The position numbers and the translations under genes are program-made. The notes beneath the pieces were generated by a model. It saw only the letters and a list, made by a program, of their open reading frames with translations, did no database searches and was not told the origin of the DNA. A DNA stretch of 64,000 nt from Escherichia coli (GTDB lineage Bacteria; Pseudomonadota; Gammaproteobacteria; Enterobacterales; Enterobacteriaceae). Shown in pieces: positions 3,078 to 32,994 of this stretch (positions are counted from its first letter, which is position 1; the number at the start of each line of letters is the position of its first letter). The stretch is from assembly GCF_003334305.1 (NCBI RefSeq), contig NZ_QOWS01000020.1; one strand, given 5' to 3'.

Positions 3078-4532
3078 ATGTATATCGGGATAGATCTTGG
3101 CACCTCGGGCGTAAAAGTTATTTTGCTCAACGAGCAGGGTGAGGTGGTTGCTTCGCAAACGGAAAAGCTGACCGTTTCGCGCCCGCATCCACTCTGGTCG
3201 GAACAAGACCCGGAACAGTGGTGGCAGGCAACTGATCGCGCAATGAAAGCTCTGGGCGATCAGCATTCTCTGCAGGACGTTAAAGCATTGGGTATTGCCG
3301 GCCAGATGCATGGAGCAACCTTACTGGATGCTCAACAACGGGTATTGCGCCCTGCCATTTTGTGGAACGACGGGCGCTGTGCGCAAGAGTGCACTTTGCT
3401 GGAAGCGAGAGTTCCGCAATCACGAGTGATTACCGGCAACCTGATGATGCCCGGATTTACTGCGCCTAAATTGCTATGGGTTCAGCGGCATGAGCCGGAG
3501 ATATTCCGTCAAATCGACAAAGTATTATTACCGAAAGATTACTTGCGTCTGCGTATGACGGGGGAGTTTGCCAGCGATATGTCTGACGCAGCTGGCACCA
3601 TGTGGCTGGATGTCGCAAAGCGTGACTGGAGTGACGTCATGCTGCAGGCTTGCGACTTATCTCGTGACCAGATGCCCGCATTATATGAAGGCAGCGAAAT
3701 TACTGGTGCTTTGTTACCTGAAGTTGCGAAAGCGTGGGGTATGGCGACGGTGCCAGTTGTCGCAGGCGGTGGCGACAATGCAGCTGGTGCAGTTGGTGTG
3801 GGAATGGTTGATGCTAATCAGGCAATGTTATCGCTGGGGACGTCGGGGGTCTATTTTGCTGTCAGCGAAGGGTTCTTAAGCAAGCCAGAAAGCGCTGTAC
3901 ACAGCTTTTGCCATGCGCTACCGCAGCGTTGGCATTTAATGTCTGTAATGCTGAGTGCAGCATCGTGTCTGGATTGGGTCGCGAAATTAACCGGCCTGTG
4001 CAATGTCCCAGCTTTAATCGCTGCAGCTCAACAGGCTGATGAAAGTGCCGAGCCAGTTTGGTTTCTGCCTTATCTTTCCGGCGAGCGTACACCACACAAT
4101 AATCCCCAGGCGAAGGGGGTTTTCTTTGGTTTGACTCATCAACATGGCCCCAATGAACTGGCGCGAGCAGTGCTGGAAGGCGTGGGTTATGCGCTGGCAG
4201 ATGGCATGGATGTCGTGCATGCCTGCGGCATTAAACCGCAAAGTGTTACGTTGATTGGTGGCGGGGCGCGTAGTGAGTACTGGCGTCAGATGCTGGCGGA
4301 TATCAGCGGTCAGCAGCTCGATTACCGTACGGGGGGGGATGTGGGGCCAGCACTGGGCGCAGCAAGGCTGGCGCAGATTGCGGCGAATCCAGAGAAATCG
4401 CTCATTGAGTTGTTGCCGCAGCTACCGTTAGAACAGTCGCATCTACCAGATGCGCAGCGTTATGCCGCTTATCAGCCACGACGTGAAACGTTCCGTCGCC
4501 TCTATCAGCAACTTCTGCCATTAATGGCGTAA
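3078..4532 (+). CDS. xylB: xylulokinase (484 aa)
   Basis: MYIGIDLGTSGVKVILL... FGGY-family sugar kinase immediately downstream of xylA. Confidence 0.95.
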   Translation: MYIGIDLGTSGVKVILLNEQGEVVASQTEKLTVSRPHPLWSEQDPEQWWQATDRAMKALGDQHSLQDVKALGIAGQMHGATLLDAQQRVLRPAILWNDGRCAQECTLLEARVPQSRVITGNLMMPGFTAPKLLWVQRHEPEIFRQIDKVLLPKDYLRLRMTGEFASDMSDAAGTMWLDVAKRDWSDVMLQACDLSRDQMPALYEGSEITGALLPEVAKAWGMATVPVVAGGGDNAAGAVGVGMVDANQAMLSLGTSGVYFAVSEGFLSKPESAVHSFCHALPQRWHLMSVMLSAASCLDWVAKLTGLCNVPALIAAAQQADESAEPVWFLPYLSGERTPHNNPQAKGVFFGLTHQHGPNELARAVLEGVGYALADGMDVVHACGIKPQSVTLIGGGARSEYWRQMLADISGQQLDYRTGGDVGPALGAARLAQIAANPEKSLIELLPQLPLEQSHLPDAQRYAAYQPRRETFRRLYQQLLPLMA

Positions 4533-4700
4533 ACGTTATCCCCTGCCTGACCGGGTGGGGGATAATTCACATCTATATATCTCACTAATTAATTAATATT
4601 TAGTATGAATTTATTCTGAAAATCATTTGTTAATGGCATTTTTCAGTTTTGTCTTTCGTTGGTTACTCGTAATGTATCGCTGGTAGATATGGAGATCGTT

Positions 4701-5042
4701 ATGAAAACCTCAAAAACTGTGGCAAAACTATTATTTGTTGTCGGGGCGCTGGTTTATCTGGTTGGGCTATGGATCTCATGCCCATTGCTAAGTGGAAAAG
4801 GCTATTTTCTTGGCGTGTTAATGACAGCAACTTTTGGTAACTATGCATATCTTCGCGCAGAAAAACTCGGGCAACTGGATAATTTTTTTACCCATATCTG
4901 CCAGTTAGTTGCGTTAATCACTATCGGTCTCTTGTTTATCGGTGTTTTAAATGCACCTATCAATGCTTATGAAATGGTGATCTACCCCATCGCCTTTTTT
5001 GTCTGCTTGTTTGGTCAAATGCGTTTGTTTCGCTCGGTATGA
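4701..5042 (+). CDS. yiaB: inner membrane protein YiaB (113 aa)
   Basis: ATG at 4701 preceded by GGAGA; hydrophobic small membrane protein; position and length match yiaB next to xylB. Confidence 0.8.
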   Translation: MKTSKTVAKLLFVVGALVYLVGLWISCPLLSGKGYFLGVLMTATFGNYAYLRAEKLGQLDNFFTHICQLVALITIGLLFIGVLNAPINAYEMVIYPIAFFVCLFGQMRLFRSV

Positions 5043-5087
5043 GCAACATAAAGCTCTTACACATTCAGGAATGAAAGGAATACTGTG

Positions 5088-5525
5088 ATGGACAACAAAA
5101 TATCAACCTATTCACCGGCCTTTAGTATTGTGTCATGGATAGCTCTCGTTGGTGGTATCGTTACCTATCTGTTAGGGCTATGGAATGCAGAGATGCAGTT
5201 AAATGAAAAAGGGTATTATTTTGCCGTACTGGTGTTAGGACTGTTTTCTGCTGCGTCTTATCAAAAGACCGTTCGGGACAAGTATGAAGGCATACCGACC
5301 ACTTCCATTTATTATATGACCTGCCTGACTGTCTTTATTATCTCTGTTGCATTACTGATGGTAGGTCTGTGGAATGCGACATTATTACTCAGTGAAAAAG
5401 GTTTTTATGGACTGGCTTTCTTCTTAAGCTTGTTTGGTGCAGTAGCGGTGCAGAAGAATATTCGTGATACCGGAATAAACCCGCCAAAAGAAACACAGGT
5501 TACCCAGGAAGAATACAGCGAATAA
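5088..5525 (+). CDS. yiaA: inner membrane protein YiaA (145 aa)
   Basis: Paralogue of the preceding ORF (shared GLWNA / SEKGFY motifs); synteny with yiaB. Confidence 0.8.
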
Positions 5526-10166: not shown

Positions 10167-10352
10167 TATCGCTAAATAATACAGCAACCTTTAATAATCT
10201 TCTGCTGAATAAAGATTATCTCATATATTAATTTTATGAGGTTTTTTTAGGATTATATCAAGGAGAAGAAACAAACTTATTAAGCTAGAATAGCCACGGG
10301 TGCTTGAGACTGTTTGTCTCAGGTATTCACCGAAAGGCAGACAGAGAAAAGC

Positions 10353-10415
10353 CCCACCTGACTATAAATCAAAGTGAGGCTACCCTATGCCTGAACACCA
10401 TAAGGTTAGCCTCTT
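10353..10415 (-). ncRNA. sokA: candidate SokA antisense RNA (type I antitoxin), approximate bounds
   Basis: On the minus strand a 7-bp hairpin (GCCUCAC/GGUGGGGC) followed by UUUUCUCU lies just upstream of and overlapping the mok start, the position expected for Sok; the ends are inferred, not mapped. Confidence 0.35.
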
Positions 10416-10683
10416 ACTCGTTGGAAATCAACACAGGGGGCTGGGAATGCCGCAGAAATATAGATTACTTTCTTTAATAGTGATTTGTTTCACGCTTTTA
10501 TTTTTCACCTGGATGATAAGAGATTCACTGTGTGAATTGCATATTAAACAGGGGAGTTATGAGCTGGCGGCATTTTTAGCCTGCAATTTAAAAGAGTTAG
10601 AGTCTTCGGCGGGAAGTTATTCCCGCCTTTCTTACGGCGTTGCGCATTCTCATTGCACCCAAATTTATTTTTCACAAAAATAA
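10387..10683 (+). CDS. mokA: mokA-like reading frame (in-frame N-terminal extension of hok)
   Basis: ORF MPEHHKVSLLLVGNQHRGLG-MPQKYR... begins 20 codons upstream of and in frame with hok, as in chromosomal mok/hok pairs. Confidence 0.5.
   Translation: MPEHHKVSLLLVGNQHRGLGMPQKYRLLSLIVICFTLLFFTWMIRDSLCELHIKQGSYELAAFLACNLKELESSAGSYSRLSYGVAHSHCTQIYFSQK
10447..10683 (+). CDS. hokA: Hok-family type I toxin (HokA-like); frame runs 78 codons here against ~50 for canonical Hok
   Basis: MPQKYRLLSLIVICFTLLFFTWMIRDSLCELHIKQGSYELAAFLACNLKE... is a Hok family sequence; the codon after ...LKE is TTA rather than a stop and the frame continues to 10683. Confidence 0.7.
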   Translation: MPQKYRLLSLIVICFTLLFFTWMIRDSLCELHIKQGSYELAAFLACNLKELESSAGSYSRLSYGVAHSHCTQIYFSQK

Positions 10684-10724: not shown

Positions 10725-10762
10725 AACAAATAAAAAAATCCCCGCCAAATGGCAGGGATCTT
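10725..10762 (-). terminator. rho-independent terminator of cspA
   Basis: Minus-strand hairpin ATCCCTGCCATTTGGCGGGAT followed by TTTTTTT downstream of the cspA stop. Confidence 0.8.
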
Positions 10763-10786
10763 AGATTCTGTGCTTTTAAGCAGAGA

Positions 10787-10999
10787 TTACAGGCTGGTTA
10801 CGTTACCAGCTGCCGGGCCTTTAGCGCCGCTTTCGATGGTGAAGGACACTTTCTGACCTTCGTCCAGAGATTTGTAACCATCGTTCTGGATAGCAGAGAA
10901 GTGTACGAACACGTCTTTAGAGCCATCGTCAGGAGTGATGAAGCCGAAGCCTTTGTCAGCGTTGAACCATTTTACGATACCAGTCATTTTACCGGACAT
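10787..10999 (-). CDS. cspA: major cold shock protein CspA (70 aa)
   Basis: [70 protein letters not shown]. Confidence 0.98.
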
Positions 11000-11225
11000 A
11001 GTGTATTACCTTTAATAATTAAGTGTGCCTTTCGGCGATATGGCGTGCTTTACAGATTTTGAAGCGTTAAAGGAATGTGCACTACGAGGGGTATCAACGA
11101 TAACTCTTGAAGGGACTTGCCTTACTACACTGCTTTAATGGTCTGTACGTCAAACCGTTGATGTGCATTAAGCCACGCATTGGCGGGTGATGCAACAATT
11201 ATTTTTCATATTTATGATTAATCGG
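11000..11225 (-). promoter_or_regulatory. cspA promoter and ~159-nt 5-prime UTR including the cold box
   Basis: Reverse complement of 11141-11158 gives ACGGTTTGACGTACAGAC (cspA mRNA 5-prime end / cold box); upstream minus-strand TTGCAT ... CTTAAT and an AT-rich UP-like region. Confidence 0.8.
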
Positions 11226-22355: not shown

Positions 22356-22432
<77 letters not shown>

Positions 22433-22519: not shown

Positions 22520-22615
22520 GACGTAGGCCTGATAAGACGCGTCAGCGTCGCATCAGGCAACGGCACCGCACTTATTGTCGGATGCGGCGTGAACGCCTTA
22601 TTCGACCTACACGCC
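22520..22615. repeat. REP / BIME-type palindromic units
   Basis: GCCTGATAAGACGCG...CGCATCAGGC and CGGATGCGGCGTGAACGCCTTAT units typical of E. coli REP elements. Confidence 0.7.
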
Positions 22616-28865: not shown

Positions 28866-28895
28866 CAAAACCGGAGCCTTGTGCTCCGGTTTACT
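28866..28895. terminator. bidirectional terminator between convergent dppF and yhjV
   Basis: AAACCGGAGC-CTTGT-GCTCCGGTTT hairpin flanked by A/T runs; overlaps the yhjV stop codon. Confidence 0.7.
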
Positions 28896-30162
28896 CAATC
28901 AGCTTCAACAGTGGCGACAAGCATAGCAAAATGCCGTACAGCAGAATCAGCCAGGCTTTAAATCCGCGAAGTTTTTCCAGTTGTGCGACTTTATAGATCA
29001 GGAAAAACGGAATGAGGCACGACACAATGCCATATAACGGGCTTCCCAACTGAAAGAACACCAGCACCGATACACGAAACGAAACCCAAATCGTCAACGT
29101 AATGACGATAAAAGCGCAGATCGCCAGAGTCAGCACGCGTGAGTTAATTTTCTTGGTATCAATAATACGGCTTAACAGATTGAGAATAATGCCTTTAATG
29201 GCCTCGTGGAAACCGAGATAAATGCCAAAGAATGCGGTCAGTACGGCAAAGATATTCAGTACCGTAGAGGTGATATGAATGATATGCCCAGGGATCACCT
29301 GCGCGGCCAGTGCCAGTGCCGAGATATTTTGTTCAAAGGCAGAAACGGCTTCTTCGTGGCTAATTGAGAAGGTAAACGAAAAGGCAAAAAACAGTATCAC
29401 CGCGATGAGCGTGACATAACTAATTCGGTGGGTACGCAGCGCGAGCCGGGTTGCCAGTACTTTATCCGCTTCCCGTTTACGATAGGCAATATTCATTGGG
29501 TTAAGTACCTGAATAAATACCGCAGAAAAGAAGCAAAAGGGAATGGTAAGCAGGACATCGTGGAAAAAGACGGAGGCTTGCGGGAAGGCGGTTATATTGG
29601 CGAAATTCCAGTGCGGGATCATCGCAAAACCGAACACGACAATAATCCCTACTTTGACCACCACCATTGGCCCAGAAATCTTAAACAGTAATCGTTCACC
29701 ACCAGACGCAATCGCCACCAGTACGGCGAAAATAGCGACTTTATAAAGTAGAGATTGTGAAAGATCGGCATCGGTTAAACCGAAGGTTTTCAGGTACGAG
29801 GCGCTGTCGAAAACCACGGAGAGAGAGTAGATAAAAATCCCGTGGATAATCATCAAAAAGTAGATAACCCCGAGGAAAATTCCCCAGTTCTTCCCCAGGT
29901 AATGACTGATAATATCGGTGTAGTCATTACAGGAATCGCTTTCAGAAAGGGTTTTTAAATAAATGTCCTGCACTACCCAAGTGGCAGGATAAGCAATGAT
30001 CGCTGCGGTAATAAATACCCAAATTCCCTTCAAGCCAATTTGTACTGGCATCAGCACGGTTCCGGCACCAATCGCCATGCCTATGCATAATAAAACCCAG
30101 CCGAAGTCGTAGCGTGTAAACGGCAATTTCTGATCGTGTTTCGGTAGTGTGTTGTGCTGCAT
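28891..30162 (-). CDS. yhjV: amino-acid transporter-like inner membrane protein YhjV (423 aa)
   Basis: Track ORF trimmed to [34 protein letters not shown]...; polytopic membrane transporter. Confidence 0.88.
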
Positions 30163-30520
30163 AAAGTCCTGTCCAGAAAGAAGTCGGCCTCGCAAAAATG
30201 AATAAACCCAGATTCTCTTGCGCAACAGGTGGAGAAGTCGAATACGCAGTATGTAAAAAATGAGGCAACAGATTCACTGGGGAGGTCGCGAGGAGGCGCA
30301 ATTCTACAAAATTGCGCATTTCACTACCAGTCTGGAGTCAGCCCGGATATGAACTGCAACTATTGCAAATTAAGAAATTAAGCTGGAAGGCATCACGCAA
30401 TGAGGAAGATTGCCGGGTGCTGACAGTAAAAAGCAATCGTAAAATCAGCGGCAAGCCGGAAGGGTTCCGGTGAGGCGCAATGTTGCGGGGGCTTTATCCC
30501 TGGTGGCATTGGTTGCTGGA

Positions 30521-30584
30521 GAGAGAAAACCCCCGCACGTTGCAGGTATGCACCTGACAACATAACGGGGGCTAATCTTGAACC
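30521..30584 (-). ncRNA. rdlD: Rdl antisense RNA (antitoxin), copy 1
   Basis: Minus-strand sequence GGUUCAAGAUUAGCCCCCGUUAUGUUGUCAGGUGCAUACCUGCAACGUGCGGGGGUUUUCUCUC ends in a GC hairpin plus U-run and matches the Rdl family as I recall it; ends approximate. Confidence 0.6.
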
Positions 30585-30637
30585 TAAACAACTCAAGAAT
30601 AGCCGCGAAACGTTGTCATTACAACACAGGCGGCTAT

Positions 30638-30745
30638 ATGACGCTCGCAGAGCTGGGCATGGCCTTCTGGCATGATTTAGCGGCTCCGGTCATTGCTGGC
30701 ATTCTTGCCAGTATGATCGTGAACTGGCTGAACAAGCGGAAGTAA
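30638..30745 (+). CDS. ldrD: Ldr small toxic peptide (35 aa), copy 1
   Basis: ATG at 30638; MTLAELGMAFWHDLAAPVIAGILASMIVNWLNKRK, Ldr family; not in the supplied ORF track (below its length cutoff). Confidence 0.85.
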   Translation: MTLAELGMAFWHDLAAPVIAGILASMIVNWLNKRK

Positions 30746-30794
30746 CGTGTCATGCGGGCGTCAGGCTGCCGTAATGGCAATTTGCGCCCGGACC

Positions 30795-30827
30795 AGGCCG
30801 CAGGGGTGAAACTCTGCGGCCTTTTTC
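30795..30827 (+). terminator. rho-independent terminator of ldr copy 1
   Basis: AGGCCGCAGGGGTGAAACTCTGCGGCCT hairpin followed by TTTTT. Confidence 0.8.
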
Positions 30828-31003
30828 GTAAGAAAAATGCAACGGTTGCAAGCGGATAATATTCTGCGGAATGCGCAGCACAGAGTGAGTAAGTGATGGA
30901 TTTCGGAACAGAAAAACAGTCGTAGAATCAGCGGCAAGCCGGAAAGGTTCCGGTAAGGCGCAATGTTGCGGGGGCTTTATCCCTGGTGGCATTGGTTGCT
31001 GGA

Positions 31004-31067
31004 GAGAGAAAACCCCCGCACGTTGCAGGTATGCACCTGACAACATAACGGGGGCTAATCTTGAACC
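31004..31067 (-). ncRNA. Rdl antisense RNA, copy 2
   Basis: Identical to copy 1 over this segment. Confidence 0.6.
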
Positions 31068-31120
31068 TAAACAACTCAAGAATAGCCGCGAAACGTTGTC
31101 ATTACAACACAGGCGGCTAT

Positions 31121-31228
31121 ATGACGCTCGCAGAGCTGGGCATGGCCTTCTGGCATGATTTAGCGGCTCCGGTCATTGCTGGCATTCTTGCCAGTATGAT
31201 CGTGAACTGGCTGAACAAGCGGAAGTAA
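31121..31228 (+). CDS. Ldr small toxic peptide (35 aa), copy 2
   Basis: ATG at 31121; identical predicted peptide to copy 1. Confidence 0.85.
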   Translation: MTLAELGMAFWHDLAAPVIAGILASMIVNWLNKRK

Positions 31229-31277
31229 CGTGTCATGCGGGCGTCAGGCTGCCGTAATGGCAATTTGCGCCCGGATC

Positions 31278-31310
31278 AGGCCGCAGAGGTTAAACTCTGC
31301 GGCCTTTTTC
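31278..31310 (+). terminator. rho-independent terminator of ldr copy 2
   Basis: AGGCCGCAGAGGTTAAACTCTGCGGCCT hairpin followed by TTTTT, abutting the bcsG stop. Confidence 0.8.
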
Positions 31311-31314
31311 GTGC

Positions 31315-32994
31315 TTACTGCGGGTAAGGCACCCAGTCGCCGCCGTTCAGGCGAACGTACGGTTTATCCTGGTATTGAATAACTACTGCATTTGAGTTCT
31401 CGGAGACCGGTGCTGTTTGTGGCAACCCACTGGTGAGTTTTTTCCAGTCAACATTGTCTTCGGTGAAAATCTTGCCATCAAGAACGCGAACCACCAGATC
31501 GGAGATAGCCAGGAAGCTGCTCGGTTGGTCAATGACAATCGGTGCCCCCTGATGTGGTGCCTTCATGCCGAAGAATTTCACCCCAACGGGGACGTCTGTG
31601 ATAGACGGGCTAGGGATATCACGTAGGCCAGATACCTGCATTCTGTCGCCCTTCAGCGCGCCGCCGTGTTCCGGCACCACGACCACCATCACTTTACGAC
31701 CCGATTTCTCCAGTTCAGTAAAGAAGGCGTCCAGTTCATCAAAGAATTTCTGCGCCCGCGCTTTGTAATCCGCTGTTTTGCTGACCCCCGGATAATGGTT
31801 GCCGTCATGCAGTGGAAGCGTGTTGTAGAACGTGGCACTACGGCTATTTTTATCTTTTTCGGTAACGTCCAGCCAGCGGTTAAGCACGGCGGTATCGTCA
31901 TAAACCGGCGAACCATCAAAGCCCAGCAAAATAACCGGCAGATTTGTTTGATCCATCAATTCAGTCTGCATGCCGCCATTTTCGCGAACTTCTTTCAAAA
32001 AACCGCCGAACTGGCCGTTATGCCCCATCATCAGGTGCTGGGTAAAGCCCAGTTTCGAAAGGTTATCAAACAGATAGCAGTCGTTATTTGCCGGTTGATA
32101 CAGATTAGTGTGCGAAGTCTGCCCGCAGCTGGCGCGCAGTAAACGGATCGCCGCCGGGCCACTGTAGGAGGTGGCGGAGTTAAAGTTCTTGAACTCAATA
32201 TCGAAATGCGACCACAGTGGATGCGACATCAACCCGGCGGCTTCTATATCCGACCAGGAAAGCGAACAGATGTTAATCACCAGTAGTTCAAATGGCTGAG
32301 CATCAGCGGGCAGCGAAGACGGGAAGGTCGATTTACGTTTCGCCTCCGCGTTATAGAAATTATTCAGCCAGGCGTTAAGGTTCGCCGTTGTTGGCGGTGC
32401 AGTTTGTGCGGGCATATCACCCACTACCGGTGCGCCACCCGTCGCCGCAACGGTTGCCGCTGCGTTACCACCCGTCGTTGTTACAGTGGTCGTCGGTTGT
32501 CCGGCTGGCCACAAGGAGAAACTTGGTCCCGCCAGGGTAAGTACGCTCAGCCATAGCAGTATGGCAACCACAAAAACGGTAATGCGAATCCATTGTGACA
32601 GGAATAACCAGGCCACTAATAAAACAAAAATGGCCCCAATCATCTGCCAGTTAATAAAGCGTGTGACAAGGTCGATTAAATAATCGGTACTGAACCCCGC
32701 CACCTGCGAACCCTGGCTCATTATGCTTTCCGGGCCAGGCAACCAGGTGTCATGCCAGAACAAAGCAAAGCCGATCGGCAGGGCAATCCAGTGGCGCAAG
32801 CGATGCAGGCTGTAGCGCGGAATGGGCATCAGCAGAAACGCGGCAAACACCAAATTGAGGAGCGGATGGAAGTTAAGATATCCCGCCCACAACAGGCCGA
32901 ACTTAACCAGAAAATAGAAGTTCCAGCCGGAAAGGCCGCGCCAGTATTGCCAGAGGGAAGAAGGCATGGCGGTATTTTGTGTAAATTGAGTCAT
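31315..32994 (-). CDS. bcsG: cellulose biosynthesis protein BcsG (559 aa)
   Basis: [42 protein letters not shown]...; N-terminal TM segments, Thr/Gly-rich linker, alkaline-phosphatase-like C-terminal domain. Confidence 0.93.

Follow-up and report, generated by a model that had tools for sequence, protein, structure and literature searches.

A tandem array of two LDR-D-type toxin-antitoxin units between yhjV and bcsG of Escherichia coli, a common copy-number variant of ldrD/rdlD

In the yhjV-bcsG interval of the window (the whole stretch of E. coli DNA analyzed here, 64,000 nucleotides in length), two units of the chromosomal type I toxin-antitoxin module LDR-D (ldrD/rdlD) very probably stand in tandem, as part of a copy-number polymorphism that runs from one to five units. 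The two-unit ldrD/rdlD state is a real, common, annotated, and already known variant of a well-characterized family. The direct repeat unit is about 0.5 kb long (a 402-bp core repeated with a 483-bp period) and includes intrinsic terminators, and alignment with K-12 together with synteny gives it a D-type sequence and the bcsG-yhjV chromosomal position. The features of the array and its flanks are listed in Table 1.

Table 1. Coordinates of the ldr/rdl array and its flanking genes in the window
Feature	Position	Strand	Basis or detail
yhjV, left flank, transporter	28891..30162	-	ORF; matches annotated yhjV in ACN001 and K-12
LDR-D-type unit 1, repeat core	30429..30830	+	Aligns with K-12 LDR-D over its full length
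Putative ldr-1 -10 hexamer TAAAAT	30440..30445	+	Inferred from position and conservation; -35 not clear
Weak RF01794 matches in ldr leaders	30487-30640, 30970-31123	+	Rfam, sub-threshold
rdl-1 antitoxin RNA, 66 nt	30524..30589	-	Rfam RF01813, full length
Rdl terminators, unit 1 / unit 2	30546-30532 / 31029-31015	-	Hairpin with U tract
Putative rdl-1 promoter	30596..30624	-	-35 TTGTAA 30619-30624, 17-nt spacer, -10 TATTCT 30596-30601
ldr-1 toxin ORF, 35 codons + stop	30638..30745	+	Translation; Pfam PF13940
ldr-1 intrinsic terminator	30795..30827 (hairpin 30795-30822)	+	11-bp stem, T tract
Inter-unit spacer, 82 bp	30831..30911	.	Missing from K-12 single-copy locus
LDR-D-type unit 2, repeat core	30912..31313	+	Direct comparison with unit 1
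Putative ldr-2 -10 hexamer TAGAAT	30923..30928	+	Equals K-12 LDR-D hexamer
rdl-2 antitoxin RNA, identical to rdl-1	31007..31072	-	Rfam RF01813, full length
Putative rdl-2 promoter	31079..31107	-	-10 31079-31084, -35 31102-31107
ldr-2 toxin ORF, identical to ldr-1	31121..31228	+	Translation
ldr-2 intrinsic terminator	31278..31310 (hairpin 31278-31305)	+	Hairpin, then T run
bcsG, right flank	31315..32994	-	ORF; matches annotated genomes

In the repeat search, two direct copies were found whose starts lie 483 bp apart (30429-30728 versus 30912-31211, 98% identity), and direct comparison gave homologous cores of 402 bp with nine mismatches, located at 30433, 30436, 30442, 30462, 30472, 30793, 30804, 30808, and 30830 in unit-1 coordinates. 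The central 320 bp (30473-30792, partner 30956-31275) are 100% identical between the units. Identity falls to 39% just upstream of the cores and to 13% just downstream, so the unit boundaries are sharp. The 3' part of the spacer sits upstream of the putative ldr-2 promoter. Tandem Repeats Finder reported no repeat, which is expected for just two copies separated by an 82-bp non-repeated spacer; this null result was overruled by the repeat search and the direct alignment. The first-pass annotation had described two near-identical direct repeats with a 483-bp period at 30420-31312, each with a 35-codon Ldr ORF, a terminator of its own, and an antisense Rdl-like RNA on the opposite strand. The span is correct to within a few bases, and every one of these elements was recovered in both units. 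The alignment that it had proposed, of the units with each other and with K-12 LDR-A/B/C/D, identified both units as D type.

Two further features of the yhjV-ldr intergenic region were noted. Upstream of yhjV, at 30296-30320, lies a short perfect palindrome, GCGCAATT-n7-AATTGCGC, which could be an operator or a hairpin. The 20-mer at 30283-30302 is 75% alike to that at 30462-30481, a resemblance that is probably due to chance.

The two toxin ORFs are identical and translate to MTLAELGMAFWHDLAAPVIAGILASMIVNWLNKRK followed by a stop codon. Both matched the Pfam Ldr_toxin profile at 35 of 35 positions (E=1e-26), and a PDB sequence search found 34 of 35 residues identical to K-12 LdrD, for which an NMR structure is available (PDB 5LBJ). 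The peptide is RefSeq WP_001295224.1, a widespread protein that is also present at the equivalent position in ACN001. Its C-terminus, ...NWLNKRK, has the conserved Trp past the TM helix and the basic residues that characterize the family. A scan of the 35-aa peptide against the NCBIfam HMM library gave no match, probably because the peptide is so short. Small toxin ORFs and Rdl RNAs of this kind are easily overlooked in ORF tracks.

On the opposite strand, each unit contains a cis-encoded antisense RNA gene within the expected size range (about 60-66 nt) that matches the Rfam rdlD family. Each copy reached 91 bits (E=4e-19), where the gathering score is 50, and aligned with model positions 1-66 of 66. 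Rdl is predicted to fold (-31.7 kcal/mol, z=-5.3) as a long stem-loop of the terminator type that leaves the 5' tail free. It lies opposite the ldr 5' UTR, 49-114 nt before the ATG, and leaves the Shine-Dalgarno sequence (AGGCGG) and the start codon uncovered; in unit 1, a gap of 48 nt separates Rdl (30524-30589) from the ldr ATG (30638), and unit 2 is laid out alike. The putative Rdl promoter is identical in both units, and its -10 hexamer sits six bases before the start of Rdl.

The sole conserved promoter-like element of ldr is a -10 hexamer about 195 nt before the ATG; the equivalent position is occupied by TAGAAT in K-12 LDR-D and by TAGTAT in LDR-A/B/C. No recognizable -35 element was found in any LDR compared, including those of K-12, and a consensus sigma-70 scan with a threshold of 9 of 12 matches reported no site for ldr or rdl. 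The ldr and rdl promoters named here are weaker matches whose putative positions were assigned by location and by conservation with K-12. Terminators were found for all four transcripts (two ldr and two Rdl), and a transcript that begins just past the putative -10 and runs to the terminator of ldr would be about 375 nt long. For this mRNA, a fold of unusual stability is predicted (-182 kcal/mol, z=-8.8), in which distant 5' and 3' parts pair with each other and the Shine-Dalgarno region is paired with the 3' UTR; in this it resembles the hok mRNA. A single ORF begins within the Rdl-complementary stretch and enters ldr; it starts at an in-frame TTG at 30578.

An alternative is that a single module of the array is active, with unit 2 (or unit 1) a decaying, non-functional duplicate. 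Pseudogenized units do occur elsewhere, as the first of the four copies in FORC_043 is annotated as frameshifted, and the sequence upstream of the unit 2 -10 is spacer rather than the yhjV-side flank of K-12. However, both ORFs in the window are intact and identical, and Rdl, its putative promoter, and the terminators are all either identical or intact. The unit 2 -10 (TAGAAT) equals that of the experimentally characterized K-12 LDR-D, 3303 genomes retain the spacer that precedes it at 90-100% identity, and the transcriptome annotation of BL21(DE3) places RdlD RNAs at all three of its pairs (PMC5435950). We therefore consider it very unlikely that either unit is a decayed remnant. The first-pass annotation had allowed for a second unit without a functional promoter or Rdl, and this is not what was found: unit 2 has the same Rdl and Rdl promoter as unit 1, and its putative ldr -10 is the K-12 LDR-D hexamer.

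A separate question is whether the number of units is an assembly artefact, produced either by spurious duplication of a single unit or by collapse of an array of at least three. Near-identical repeats of 402 bp are difficult for short reads, and a toxin-antitoxin survey of adherent-invasive E. coli warned of possible errors in the number of tandem ldr units in assemblies (PMC7232551). As about 51% of complete genomes have at least three units, a collapse from three to two is conceivable, and consensus calling or polishing over ambiguously mapped reads could yield the pattern seen in the central 320 bp, which are identical between the units and represent an allele that is unmatched at 100% in 5426 genomes. 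Against an artefact, the nine edge differences follow position in the array: unit 1 agrees with the first unit, and unit 2 with the last, of the independent two-copy complete genomes ACN001 and F8704-2, which indicates two positionally distinct, genuine copies. The closest complete genomes (S21, H14, EC7518, and others), which align with the window without gaps at 99.4-99.5% identity over 14 kb, have two units too, and about 500 complete genomes are estimated to have exactly two. Spurious duplication, as from a duplicated contig end, was rejected because the edge SNPs match first- and last-unit alleles in independent genomes. As read from the assembled sequence, these observations argue for a two-unit array that is genuine in the source strain, and we think it very unlikely that the copy number is artefactual. 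For tandem arrays of this kind, long-read confirmation of the copy number is needed before it is interpreted.

The identical centre of the two units is the one detail that is specific to this strain. It spans Rdl, the Rdl promoter, and the ORF, and the best full-length match to it among the 5426 genomes is 99.4% identical. Relative to ACN001, the allele is of unit-1 type at 30585 and 30733 and of unit-2 type at 30550, 30551, 30587, and 30590. Two explanations for the identity of the centres remain: one unit converted the other, or the identity is a consensus/polishing artefact. In the first, a tract of at least 184 bp would have copied the centre of one unit onto the other; in the second, software would have given both copies the same bases, because short reads cannot be placed beyond about 45 bp into the repeat.

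In the other two- and three-copy genomes that we examined, most Rdl differences within an array are in the loop or in the single-stranded 5' tail, which is the most variable stretch of the unit, whereas the two Rdl sequences of the window are identical. Among 23 units from 8 genomes, 8 of 17 tail positions (30573-30589 in the window) were variable versus 64 of 385 positions elsewhere, a difference that is only suggestive because the test (Fisher p=0.005) ignores shared ancestry. Orthogonal, non-cross-reacting toxin/antitoxin pairs have been shown for Sib/Ibs, and by analogy, the tail differences within ldr arrays may provide unit-specific antitoxin recognition. It is possible, but in our judgment unlikely, that the units in the window were recently homogenized by gene conversion to a private 320-bp allele and, if the tails are selected for orthogonality, thereby collapsed to double dosage. 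If the tail diversity does reflect such selection, the source strain would represent a natural case of orthogonality collapse. The population data (arrays of one to five units with differing Rdl RNAs) could serve as the basis of a modest study on how specific the antitoxins of an array are.

To gauge how common tandem ldrD/rdlD units are, we searched 5426 complete RefSeq genomes of E. coli. A 141-bp junction query (30800-30940), which can match solely where two D-type units adjoin, was found at a coverage of at least 80% in 3303 of these genomes (61%) at 90-100% identity, with 1-4 junctions per genome (median 2). K-12 strains were absent from the 3303 junction-positive genomes. In a second search with a 2-kb query, 2636 genomes reached a coverage of at least 80%; these have one or two units, and genomes with three or more fall short of this coverage. 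The one- and two-copy classes are not directly separable in this search, as one genomic unit aligns to both query units (96% coverage). The size of the two-copy class was obtained by arithmetic (2636 + 3303 - 5426 = 513), which assumes that every genome belongs to some class. We thus estimate that about 2120 genomes (39%) have one unit, about 510 (9-10%) have two, and about 2790 (~51%) have three or more. Evenly spaced samples of the listed records agreed with these estimates, with two units in 4 of 40 (2-kb search) and a single junction in 10 of 59 (junction search).

In every genome that was inspected, all junctions were at the bcsG-yhjV locus. At this position, there is one unit in K-12 MG1655 (a single ldrD/rdlD pair); two units in ACN001, S21, F8704-2, and E2348/69; three in MARGA_3 and E. 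coli B ATCC 11303; four in FORC_043 (one of them frameshifted) and strain 3150; and five in AST85. RefSeq labels the extra genes "type I toxin-antitoxin system toxin Ldr family protein". Some of these genomes differ in other ways: in E2348/69, an IS200C insertion separates bcsG from the last of the ldr units, and the gene beyond yhjV is hipA instead of dppF; in FORC_043, the frameshifted ldr copy is the first; and in F8704-2, bcsG is frameshifted. A few LDR-like matches (24-33 places) were on records labeled as plasmids.

The variation from one to five copies across complete genomes fits the suggestion, made in the first-pass annotation, that tandem repeats are a recombination hotspot. Its implication that a two-unit locus is unusual did not hold, as about 61% of complete genomes have at least two units and the genes are annotated in RefSeq. 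The multi-copy locus has also been described in print. A genome and transcriptome study reported one ldrD/rdlD pair between bcsG and yhjV in K-12 and three in BL21(DE3) (PMC5435950, 2017), and lineage-specific tandem duplications of ldr-rdl, with variable Ldr counts among enterobacteria, were reported earlier (Fozo et al., 2010; PMC2887945). It is K-12 that is unrepresentative at this locus, because a single ldrD/rdlD copy is present in just ~39% of complete E. coli genomes. The finding matters little beyond correct annotation, and it raises no new question.

The K-12 state may itself be derived. At all variable sites but two, the unit of MG1655 is the same as unit three of E. coli B ATCC 11303, and those two exceptions, at the extreme 5' edge, match the first unit of B. 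The 82-bp spacer is not built from sequences that flank the single-copy locus. Taken together, these comparisons suggest that the K-12 copy is a deletion derivative, which would have arisen by unequal crossing-over that removed units from a B-like three-unit array. They speak against the alternative, in which a K-12-like single copy was recently duplicated to give the arrays.

The proposed mode of action combines the sequence anatomy, profile-based family membership, locus, and population distribution described here with the toxicity, Rdl repression, and RNase III cleavage established in the K-12 LdrD/RdlD literature. Each unit would produce a structured ldr mRNA of about 375 nt from the + strand, encoding a 35-residue single-helix inner-membrane peptide that would be toxic when overproduced, and a 66-nt Rdl RNA from the - strand, whose promoter would sit within the 5' UTR of ldr. 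Rdl, being perfectly complementary to the ldr leader, would block Ldr synthesis post-transcriptionally, perhaps by way of the proposed hok/mok-like leader ORF "ldrX". In K-12, overproduction of LdrD is toxic and causes rapid nucleoid condensation (PMC4147584; PMC8309996), and coexpression of RdlD suppresses this toxicity (Kawano et al., 2002, summarized in PMC4147584). The same literature places Rdl opposite the 5' UTR of ldr and suggests a hok/sok-like mechanism, possibly through the proposed ldrX (PMC4147584; PMC8309996). The ldrD/rdlD overlap in K-12 gives rise to RNase III-dependent dsRNA of ~21 nt (PMC7373196). By analogy with K-12 LdrD/RdlD, the L3 variant of Ldr in the window may be toxic and may be suppressed by its Rdl.

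Because both Rdl RNAs and both ldr leaders are identical, either mRNA can be paired by either Rdl. We infer from this that the two units would cross-repress and together act like a single module present in double dose. The polymorphism of one to five copies would be maintained by unequal recombination among homologous units, and the single copy of K-12 would represent one extreme of that range.

Several other noncoding elements were identified elsewhere in the window. A match to the Rfam "sok" family (125 bits) at 10298-10449 (+) marks a chromosomal locus of the hok/sok type I toxin-antitoxin kind, which we take to be at the hokA position of K-12. It adjoins the cspA thermoregulator 5' UTR (10732-11159, -; 501 bits). 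A tRNA-Pro (CGG) gene at 22356-22432 (+) is followed by a match to naRNA4, a REP-derived nucleoid-associated ncRNA (22526-22607, -; 72 bits).

The closest known system is K-12 LDR-D (ldrD/rdlD, b4453/b4454), which has the same bcsG-yhjV locus, the same architecture, and the same terminator, and in which Rdl likewise lies opposite the 5' UTR. The DNA of the window unit is 97.5% identical to it, and the single toxin difference is L3 in the window in place of F3. Rdl in the window differs from K-12 RdlD at three positions in the 5' tail and two in the upper stem (GTTTAGGTTC...GTTATG versus GTCTAGAGTC...GTGGTG). The window has two units and the 82-bp spacer, whereas K-12 has one unit without the spacer. 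Other arrays at bcsG-yhjV have the same 483-bp period and a spacer that is 96.5-100% identical, and they encode the same Ldr protein, WP_001295224.1. In the arrays examined, the units of one genome differ at 3-9 Rdl positions, in contrast to the identical Rdl pair of the window.

The K-12 ldrA/B/C-rdlA/B/C genes are also arranged in tandem, and between them and the window units the 5' UTR is conserved, as are the stem of the Rdl terminator and the terminator of the mRNA. This triplet lies between kdsA and chaA and has a period of ~535 bp and another spacer, and the LDR-A/B/C subgroup is clearly diverged from the window units in ORF DNA and protein. The K-12 layout given in the first-pass annotation, with one ldrD/rdlD unit at this position and a triplicated module at the ldrABC locus, is correct. 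Another parallel is provided by hok/sok (on plasmid R1, and as chromosomal hok), in which a small membrane toxin is likewise encoded by a stable, folded mRNA with a long 5' UTR, and in which a short cis-antisense RNA leaves the toxin start codon uncovered, as Rdl does. The toxin families are unrelated (Hok/Gef versus Ldr/Fst), and the leader ORF of ldr is hypothesized only. When compared with Rfam RF01794 (sok/CssrC), the ldr leader gave a match below threshold (30.9 bits versus a gathering score of 59, E=4e-4), which hints that the ldr and hok leaders may be structurally similar.
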